Source of the DNA: Candidatus Methanoperedens sp.
GTDB taxonomy: Archaea > Halobacteriota > Methanosarcinia > Methanosarcinales > Methanoperedenaceae
Assembly (NCBI GenBank): GCA_041494705.1
Contig: JBGQBI010000003.1
Location: forward strand, 60,001-92,000
Length of the DNA: 32,000 nt
Direction: 5' to 3'
Shown: in pieces, positions 27,311-27,586 of the stretch
How positions within the stretch are numbered: position 1 is the stretch's first letter
Layout: each line of letters begins with the position of its first letter
Notes under the pieces: generated by a model
The model's input: the letters and a program-made list of their open reading frames with translations, nothing else
What the model was told of the DNA's origin: nothing
Databases searched by the model: none
Translations under genes and position numbers: made by a program

Positions 27311-27586
27311 TTATTTCTCCAGTATATCCTTCATCACCGGTCCAAGCATACCCTTTACAATCTCTGCGAGCTCCTCGACCCTGATTAAAGAGATACAGTA
27401 TACTTCGCCGCCCTTTTCCCAGCTTATAACAGCCAGTTTATCTCCAGCATGAATTTTTGCCTTATCTCTGATATCTTTGGGAAGTACCGTTTGCCCCCTG
27501 TCATCTACAGTTATTACAGACTCTACCTTGCAGCAACCCATATTTGAAGGAGTACAGCAAGATTTGTTTTCATCTTTCTTTGCCAT
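27311..27586 (-). CDS. SpoVT/AbrB-fold DNA-binding protein with an N-terminal double vicinal-cysteine motif
   Basis: 91 aa. KSCCTPSNMGCCKVES is followed by VITVDDRGQTVLPKDIRDKAKIHAGDKLAV (swapped-hairpin AbrB/MazE/SpoVT pattern). GGTGA lies 4 nt upstream of the ATG. First gene of the hgc operon. Confidence 0.7.
   Translation of the reverse strand: MAKKDENKSCCTPSNMGCCKVESVITVDDRGQTVLPKDIRDKAKIHAGDKLAVISWEKGGEVYCISLIRVEELAEIVKGMLGPVMKDILEK

Follow-up and report, generated by a model that had tools for sequence, protein, structure and literature searches.

The question raised by this stretch of DNA is what the small gene at the head of a combined arsenic- and mercury-methylation operon does, and what its product senses. 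The window, a 32,000-nucleotide (nt) stretch of contig JBGQBI010000003.1 from Candidatus Methanoperedens sp. (assembly GCA_041494705.1, contig positions 60,001 to 92,000; coordinates below count from its first letter), carries this gene, an hgcC homolog, in front of arsM and hgcAB. An earlier note on the sequence had suggested that its product is an AbrB/SpoVT-fold protein that uses paired cysteines as a soft-metal sensor, which we consider plausible. Our preferred reading, to which we assign a probability of about 0.6, is that HgcC is an autoregulated AbrB-fold repressor of its own operon that is released by thiol binding of As(III). The fold, the conservation of the cysteines, the conservation and position of an operator, and the linkage to methylation genes were all computed here. 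The gene and the parts of its product were located as follows.

27311..27586, minus strand: hgcC-like gene, ATG start, 91 amino acids (NF040962 111.7 bits, TIGR01439 34.5 bits, SpoVT/AbrB matches in PDB and Foldseek searches)
27530..27559, minus strand: CC-X6-CC tail, codons 10-19 (sequence; conservation in homologs)
27380..27526, minus strand: AbrB/SpoVT-like core, codons 21-69 (VESVITVDDRGQTVLPKDIR...EVYCISLIR), including the conserved C64 in the last strand (SpoVT/AbrB profile alignment, DSSP)
27317..27379, minus strand: C-terminal helix, codons 70-90, with a VKGMLGP motif (H70-90 in the model)

The full translation was MAKKDENKSCCTPSNMGCCKVESVITVDDRGQTVLPKDIRDKAKIHAGDKLAVISWEKGGEVYCISLIRVEELAEIVKGMLGPVMKDILEK, with MAKKDENKSCCTPSNMGCCKVES as its N-terminal part. 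A Shine-Dalgarno-like AAGGTGAT was found at 27597-27590, 5' of the ATG, and this start is supported because homologs have the same N-terminus. The 111.7-bit match to NCBIfam NF040962 ('near_HgcAB', HgcAB-associated protein HgcC) exceeded the cut-off of 70, with profile positions 1-70 on residues 18-87; the RefSeq family of HgcAB-associated proteins that the earlier note had mentioned therefore exists. The AbrB domain model TIGR01439 was matched above its cut-off of 28.3 bits, Pfam PF04014 MazE_antitoxin fell just below its gathering score (24.1 vs. 24.7 bits), and the SpoVT equivalog score was far below cut-off. No match in the window protein was found to the helix-turn-helix families that mark the ArsR/SmtB domain (HTH_5/HTH_20), nor to MerR. 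A 47-sequence profile searched against PDB sequences recovered the N-domain of SpoVT (2ro5, 3e-5) and archaeal AbrB proteins (5itj/2l66; AbrB 1e-3). The AlphaFold2 monomer model had a predicted local distance difference test (pLDDT) score of 76.6 overall and 84-91 for residues 20-80, and DSSP assigned a helix at 37-42, strands at 51-58 and 61-69 (forming a hairpin, 51-69), and a long C-terminal helix at 70-90. The top 16 Foldseek matches in the PDB all belonged to the AbrB/SpoVT/MazE superfamily (probability 0.75-1.0, target template modeling score up to 0.70); their E-values were weak (>=0.02) because the domain has only about 50 residues. HgcC has an AbrB/SpoVT fold, and the assignment made in the earlier note stands. 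In an alignment of 47 homologs, V77, K78, L81, G82 and P83 were invariant, and the C-terminal helix that holds them may serve oligomerization.

The cysteines of the window protein are C10, C11, C18 and C19, which form the CC-X6-CC already reported for this open reading frame, and C64 in the last beta-strand. Residues 1-17 were predicted by AlphaFold2 to be disordered (pLDDT <50), with C18/C19 at the N-terminal edge of the AbrB domain. C10, C11, C19 and C64 were each at least 90% conserved in 47 homologs (66-90% identity). Among 119 close homologs, the C19-equivalent was present in 96%, the C64-equivalent in 99%, and any distal-tail cysteine in 99%; among 133 diverse representatives (one per 50%-identity cluster) the values were 77%, 80% and 65%, and across all sets they ranged over 77-100%, 80-100% and 65-100%, respectively. 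At least one of the three positions was kept in 132 of the 133 representatives, and those without one site nearly always kept the other two. At residues 63-64 the window protein reads Y-C, whereas most homologs carry a Cys pair (C63-C64), and in a 22-sequence divergent alignment C64 was invariant and C19 and C63 were at least 90% conserved. The aligned sequences of solved AbrB/SpoVT structures contained no cysteine at these positions. Judged from the alignments, the cysteine motif of HgcC is not a chance feature and is conserved family-wide. The expectation of a conserved CC...CC tail held for the presence of cysteines but not for the exact motif: the distal CC pair occurred in only 26% of the 133 representatives, and the number of tail CC pairs ranged from 0 to 4 across the family. 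As far as these comparisons go, CC-X6-CC is not an invariant feature, and C19, C64 and usually the C63-C64 pair are better kept. No significant correlation was found among the three sites (Fisher p = 0.075-0.24), and the trend was toward anti-correlation, i.e., redundancy. Three thiol positions with some redundancy are the pattern of As(III) S3 sites in ArsR proteins. The tail, SCCAPxxxxGCCK, also closely resembles the N-terminal SCCAPxxxSCCG (CC-X5-6-CC) of the adjacent ArsM enzymes (window 26475-27296 and loci L001-L080). Separately, HgcA proteins have CC-rich N-terminal extensions, and that of the window HgcA includes SCCGSSGCG. The shared tails of the regulator, ArsM and HgcA may represent a common metalloid-capturing tail or an origin by recombination.

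The genes that follow hgcC form a tight cluster on one strand in the order hgcC-arsM-nitroreductase-hgcA-hgcB, and one further feature lies upstream.

26475..27296, minus strand: arsM, arsenite S-adenosylmethionine methyltransferase (NF008823 373.4 bits, cut-off 263)
25858..26433, minus strand: nitroreductase-family gene within the operon (PF00881, 1e-36)
24753..25853, minus strand: hgcA, mercury-methylation corrinoid protein (NF040863 424.9 bits, cut-off 275)
24470..24790, minus strand: hgcB ferredoxin (NF040864 105.7 bits, cut-off 99)
27659..27676, minus strand: terminator-like hairpin and T-run between the GXGXG/FwdC-like gene and the hgcC promoter (weak: the region has as many sites of this kind as expected by chance)

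Only 14 nt separate hgcC from arsM. The true start of hgcB is likely the ATG at 24751, as homolog alignments begin at residue 14. The next gene upstream of hgcC, which is GXGXG/FwdC-like, ends 121 nt away, and this distance together with the weak hairpin and T-run makes it reasonable to call hgcC the first gene of the operon; the earlier note had read it the same way, and a conserved predicted operator overlaps the promoter of hgcC. A sigma-70 promoter and terminator scan of the window gave counts at chance level, with only the 27659-27676 hairpin noted, and is uninformative for an archaeon; an Rfam scan of the window gave no matches. The hgcAB association that names NF040962 is present here, in the same operon, with hgcC two genes upstream of hgcA. 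The closest match to the window protein (93% identity) was from Candidatus Methanoperedens, a methane-oxidizing archaeon, in which hgcAB is joined with arsM and the nitroreductase gene in one operon (window 24470-27586; L002, L007); the nitroreductase gene is also present in Methanoperedens loci L001, L002 and L007. In the literature searched, Methanoperedens and hgcA were seldom named together.

The gene neighborhoods of the family were compared in two samples. The first comprised 80 loci on GTDB contigs, one genome per species, with proteins 57-93% identical to the window protein, from Methanoperedens, Methanothrix, Methanocellales, Thermoplasmata, Bathyarchaeia, Dehalococcoidia, Syntrophia/Deltaproteobacteria, Nitrospirota, Aminicenantes, Zixibacteria, Actinobacteria and others. 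The second comprised 80 metagenome loci of a divergent subfamily (first sequence P0182) approximately 45-50% identical to the window protein. Percentages are indicative only, because each sample holds the best 80 of more than 575 matches. In the first sample, 75 loci were evaluable (five were not): the downstream gene was arsM in 56, hgcA-hgcB in 15, and arsM followed by hgcAB in three, all of them Methanoperedens like the window, with no cargo in one. The second gave arsM in 70, hgcAB in three and neither in one of 74 evaluable loci, with six too short. Pooled over the 149 evaluable archaeal and bacterial loci, arsM was found in 126 (85%), hgcAB in 18 (12%), both in three (2%) and neither in two, so that arsM or hgcA lay downstream in 147, usually 10-60 nt from the regulator, and arsM stood without hgcAB within 3.5-4.5 kb in 85%. 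With hgcAB adjacent in only ~14% of evaluable loci, this adjacency is not family-defining, and the proposal of a sensor for the hgc operon, restricted to hgcA neighborhoods, did not hold. The family accompanies arsenic and mercury methylation genes, arsM above all, and is not hgc-specific.

Individual members showed the same breadth, and all that were looked up scored above the HgcC cut-off (103-126 bits). A subfamily with CxC...C tails lies directly upstream of hgcAB and has the highest NF040962 score (125.6 bits). P0171 (L169, 2487-3970), with four CC pairs in its tail, lies upstream of a low-molecular-weight phosphatase/ArsC-like gene and a MIP channel gene, which suggests that what the loci have in common is arsenic and not mercury; because P0171 nevertheless reaches 103 bits, the equivalog name of NF040962 over-reaches. 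P0268 (L168, 265-1024) has a His-rich tail (HHVHHH) in place of Cys pairs and keeps both the downstream arsM and the operator. At least 12 loci, including three linked to hgcAB (L060, L134, L139), have an ACR3 arsenite pump no more than a few kb away, and two regulator-arsM pairs were isolated among housekeeping genes. An orphan member in Deferrimicrobium (L019, 6374-7613, minus strand), without arsM or hgcA downstream, converges on the methionine sulfoxide reductase genes msrA/msrB; just two or three loci, this one included, have no arsenic or mercury cargo. Look-up of P0219 revealed no recognizable cargo gene, and the contigs of P0140 and P0178 were too short to show cargo. In a neighbor-joining tree, arsM-linked and hgcAB-linked proteins interleaved, which suggests one sensor type with swapped cargo.

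Upstream of the regulator, a conserved inverted-repeat array was found. The 5' region of hgcC, in gene orientation, reads TTCAGTTTATTCTGATTTATCAGAAAAGTTTAAATATTCAGAAC and contains two overlapping features.

27613..27655, minus strand: predicted operator, TCAG-N6-CTGA-N4-TCAG-AAAAG-TTTAAATA-T-TCAG in gene orientation (sequence and conservation)
27620..27627, minus strand: archaeal TATA-box-like TTTAAATA with operator half-sites on both sides (sequence; kept in 32 archaeal loci)

On the plus strand the half-sites are CTGA at 27615-27618, 27633-27636 and 27651-27654 and TCAG at 27641-27644, with a core palindrome at 27631-27646. The palindrome that the earlier note had placed at 27613-27646 is a real inverted repeat and corresponds to the outer half-sites of this array; several CTGA/TCAG half-sites surrounding a TATA box are the more fitting description. 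CTGATAAATCAG at 27633-27644 is the sole CTGA-N4-TCAG in the 32-kb window. Of 78 loci, 50 had CTGA-N4-TCAG no more than 150 nt upstream of the regulator gene, clustering at -50 to -60 (~-55), and its density was 4.44/kb upstream of the regulator vs. 0.016/kb elsewhere in the same loci, an enrichment of ~280-fold. A CTGA-N4-TCTG variant was present in 26 loci, some of which may be among the 50; N3, N5 and everted variants of the palindrome were not enriched in the same loci. The archaeal consensus (32 loci), tttaTCAGttTaTTCTGATTtaTCAGAAAAgTTTAAATAtTCaGAa, comprises four half-sites, the last two of which flank the TATA box, and the bacterial consensus (42 loci) is TTGACA...TAtAAT-aTCAGt.TAttCTGATTaaTCAGAatA.Tctga, in which the array begins at the -10 box. 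The operator consensus is thus the same in archaea, beside the TATA box, and in bacteria, beside the -10 box, and it is kept in the divergent subfamily (~45% identical) and in the ArsC/MIP, hgcAB and orphan loci. The regulator is the obvious candidate for the operator-binding protein, because it is the only gene common to all motif-bearing loci, and HgcC would bind DNA at this site. TTTAAATA would act as the TATA box of the promoter, and the position of the operator over the promoter predicts repression by promoter occlusion.

Searches of the window for further operator copies (CTGANNNNTCAG, exact; TTCTGANNNNTCAGAA, up to two mismatches) returned only the hgcC site as real, with the others at chance level and no HgcC-type operator at the arsR-acr3 genes of the window. 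In the related loci, 11 'background' palindromes were considered as extra operators and rejected, since they lie mostly in coding sequence, e.g., in a conserved ArsM codon stretch; two of them (L028 +1442 and L007 -5014) might be operators. Several bacterial cassettes (L015-L017, L025, L059, L081, L083) carry a TATA-like AAAGTTTAAATATTC between half-sites, yet have a TTGACA -35 box upstream. This archaeal-looking element suggests inter-domain transfer of the whole promoter-operator-regulator cassette.

We propose that HgcC, as a dimer or tetramer, would repress its own operon, hgcC-arsM-nitroreductase-hgcAB, by binding the array of CTGA/TCAG half-sites (core CTGA-N4-TCAG) that brackets the TATA box and so blocking the access of TBP/TFB; in bacterial relatives the same array, starting at the -10 box, would block RNA polymerase. 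C10/C11 in the flexible tail, C18/C19 at the edge of the first strand and C64 in the last strand may together supply a thiolate site for a soft metal(loid). The analogous S3 sites of ArsR proteins make As(III) the most probable effector, with Hg(II) possibly acting as well. Metalloid binding is predicted to pull the tail and first strand out of the DNA-binding geometry, which would free the operator and induce the methylation genes. The arsM cargo, the ArsC-like and MIP cargo, the nearby ACR3 genes, the ArsM-like tail and the arsenic response of ArsR2, discussed below, all point to an arsenic effector, although the effector could be Hg(II), MAs(III), Sb(III) or a redox signal. HgcC would best be classed as an AbrB-fold type of thiol-based metal(loid)-responsive repressor. 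The broader claim, that it founds a class of AbrB-fold Cys-tail repressors sensing As(III) and perhaps Hg(II), carried between archaea and bacteria as a self-contained promoter-operator-regulator cassette that drives arsM, hgcAB or both, is held more tentatively, at somewhat less than even odds.

The window also contains a canonical arsenic module 13 kb from the hgcC operon.

12672-13040, plus strand: ArsR/SmtB regulator with its own Cys-rich N-tail (CPC...CC) (NF033788, 61 bits)
12672-14141, plus strand: span of this ArsR with an ACR3 arsenite pump (TIGR00832, 447 bits)
11209-11778, minus strand: DGC-domain protein (PF08859), of a kind seen in ND132 ars operons

Several observations weigh against an As(III)-released repressor. 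A canonical ArsR is present in the window and in several other loci, so that HgcC, as another sensor of As(III), would partly duplicate its role and might respond to a different effector; HgcC and ArsR may sense different species or respond at different thresholds. The distal CC pair varies, N-terminal Cys are missing from a few members, and one member carries the His-rich tail. AbrB-family proteins are often not sequence-specific palindrome binders. The locus samples, moreover, are not an unbiased census.

Other functions for the cysteines were weighed against this reading. A mercury sensor, with the Cys sites binding Hg(II) as a MerR-like tri-thiolate on an AbrB scaffold to control hgcAB, would suit hgcAB being present in the window operon, the function implied by the NCBIfam name, the position of the top-scoring CxC...C-tailed subfamily right upstream of hgcAB, and the very tight binding of Hg(II) by vicinal thiols. 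We consider it unlikely, however, given the 85% of evaluable loci with arsM and no nearby hgcAB, the member that fronts ArsC-like and MIP genes, the interleaving of hgcAB- and arsM-linked proteins in the tree, and the response of hgcAB expression in ND132 to arsenic. Somewhat less probable again is an ArsD-like metallochaperone that delivers As(III) to ArsM or Hg(II) to HgcAB through vicinal Cys pairs and binds DNA only secondarily, if at all. The domain that the family conserves has a DNA-binding fold, the gene is accompanied by a highly conserved operator at promoter-occluding positions, and it also fronts non-methylating cargo; these features outweigh the likeness of vicinal Cys pairs on a flexible tail to the metalloid sites of ArsD, the tail's copy of the ArsM N-terminal Cys motif (with CC-rich N-extensions in HgcA as well), and what appears, from gene arrangement, to be constant co-transcription with an enzyme.

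We rate about as low as the metallochaperone a sensor of thiol redox state, sulfide or Fe-S clusters (or a structural Zn site) that would tie oxygen-sensitive methylation genes to anoxia. All hosts are anaerobes, there are four to five Cys per 91 amino acids, the orphan member lies beside msrA/msrB, and cyanobacterial AbrB-like regulators are redox-modified, but cargo is arsenic- or mercury-specific in ~99% of evaluable loci, vicinal CC pairs are poor Fe-S ligands, and the tail is similar to the part of ArsM that binds As(III). The published view of the gene as a type II antitoxin (PrlF/MazE-like), with hgcAB merely co-regulated, is that of Zhang et al. 2023 and was repeated in a 2026 paper. 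Beyond the literature, it could draw on weak matches to PF04014 MazE_antitoxin (24.1 bits) and PrlF NF007429 (20.8 bits), the latter falling far short of its 125-bit cut-off. A toxin gene was found neither downstream in ~150 loci, where arsM or hgcA stands instead, nor in the two fully annotated neighborhoods, which makes a toxin-antitoxin role very unlikely, and the Cys motifs are foreign to antitoxins. This reading was rejected on synteny (no cognate YhaV, MazF or PIN toxin gene) and hidden Markov model scores, and we give it hardly any weight. Elsewhere in the window, a PIN_2-domain protein (PF10130, 1.7e-27; 30757-31451, minus strand) and the overlapping 87-amino-acid open reading frame before it make up a genuine-looking toxin-antitoxin pair, unlike hgcC. 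Consecutive membrane subunits of the Mrp/NADH-dehydrogenase type (Proton_antipo_M, three times; NADHdh) were also observed at 706-8023 (minus strand).

An As(III)-released HgcC repressor would resemble several known systems in part. Like ArsR/SmtB repressors, including ArsR2, it would be the product of a small, autoregulated first gene of ars, arsM or hgcAB operons with Cys-thiolate sites and an operator overlapping the promoter, and some ArsRs (AfArsR, CgArsR) have vicinal Cys pairs on their termini. Unlike the winged helix-turn-helix of ArsR/SmtB, HgcC has a swapped-hairpin AbrB domain and a different operator, which makes this an analogy and not a homology. Its DNA-binding core is homologous to those of AbrB, SpoVT, Abh, Sso7c4 and MazE, but unlike the AbrB/SpoVT/MazE relatives it combines an N-terminal Cys tail with a Cys or Cys pair in strand 4 and one C-terminal helix. 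Sensing relies on a GAF domain in SpoVT, on toxin binding in the antitoxins and on the antirepressor AbbA in AbrB; we know of no AbrB/SpoVT/MazE member with a conserved Cys tail or a metal effector. Vicinal cysteines capture As(III) or Hg(II) in ArsD and in the C-terminal Cys pair of HgcB, but these have a thioredoxin-like and a ferredoxin fold, respectively, and of the three only HgcC combines an AbrB domain with a conserved operator. MerR sensors have an N-terminal helix-turn-helix, a coiled coil and three Hg-binding Cys and act as activators on promoters with a 19-20 bp spacer, whereas the HgcC operator lies over the TATA or -10 box and not in a long spacer.

Zhang et al. 2023 (PMC10349881) described a 'prlF/abrB/mazE' antitoxin-like gene right upstream of hgcA on 14 of 35 hgcAB contigs and in 8 of 31 confirmed methylators (six archaeal and two bacterial strains), and proposed it as a putative archaeal hgcAB regulator. 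That paper treats the gene as an antitoxin and does not mention the cysteines, the operator or the arsM linkage. Their gene and NF040962 belong to the same family as HgcC here and occupy the same site upstream of hgcAB in Methanomicrobia and some bacteria; compared with their description, most family members found here were arsM- or ars-linked, all above the HgcC cut-off. Experiments support only one regulator of hgcAB, ArsR2 of Pseudodesulfovibrio mercurii ND132, an ArsR-like, arsenic-responsive protein with a four-Cys site, encoded at the corresponding place upstream of hgcAB (bioRxiv 10.1101/2022.10.17.512643). A 2024 Chem Rev review of bacterial metal sensing does not mention AbrB, and the literature searched contained no characterized AbrB-fold metalloregulator, in agreement with the earlier note. 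It also held no paper using the name HgcC in the HgcAB-associated sense, and the themes of HgcAB-associated proteins, arsM and AbrB with arsenite led only to Zhang et al. 2023 and papers citing it.

The control of hgcAB expression and the purpose of HgcAB are open questions in mercury biogeochemistry, and the putative archaeal hgcAB regulator is currently described in the literature as a toxin-antitoxin gene. The family had already been named, and was flagged in 2023; the likely mechanism, the operator, the cysteine triad, the main linkage to arsM and the non-antitoxin nature were not found in the literature searched. If confirmed, the RefSeq name 'HgcAB-associated protein HgcC' would need revision, since many arsM-only genomes receive this label and surveys of methylators could be misled. 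An As(III)-responsive HgcC would, if true, be the first metal sensor on the AbrB fold and would add AbrB to the short list of metalloregulator scaffolds, and it would offer a compact new arsenic biosensor part for archaeal and bacterial promoters. That the same regulator mainly serves arsM strengthens the link between arsenic and mercury methylation and, if the proposed mechanism is true, mercury methylation by HgcAB would be natively wired into arsenic/metalloid metabolism.

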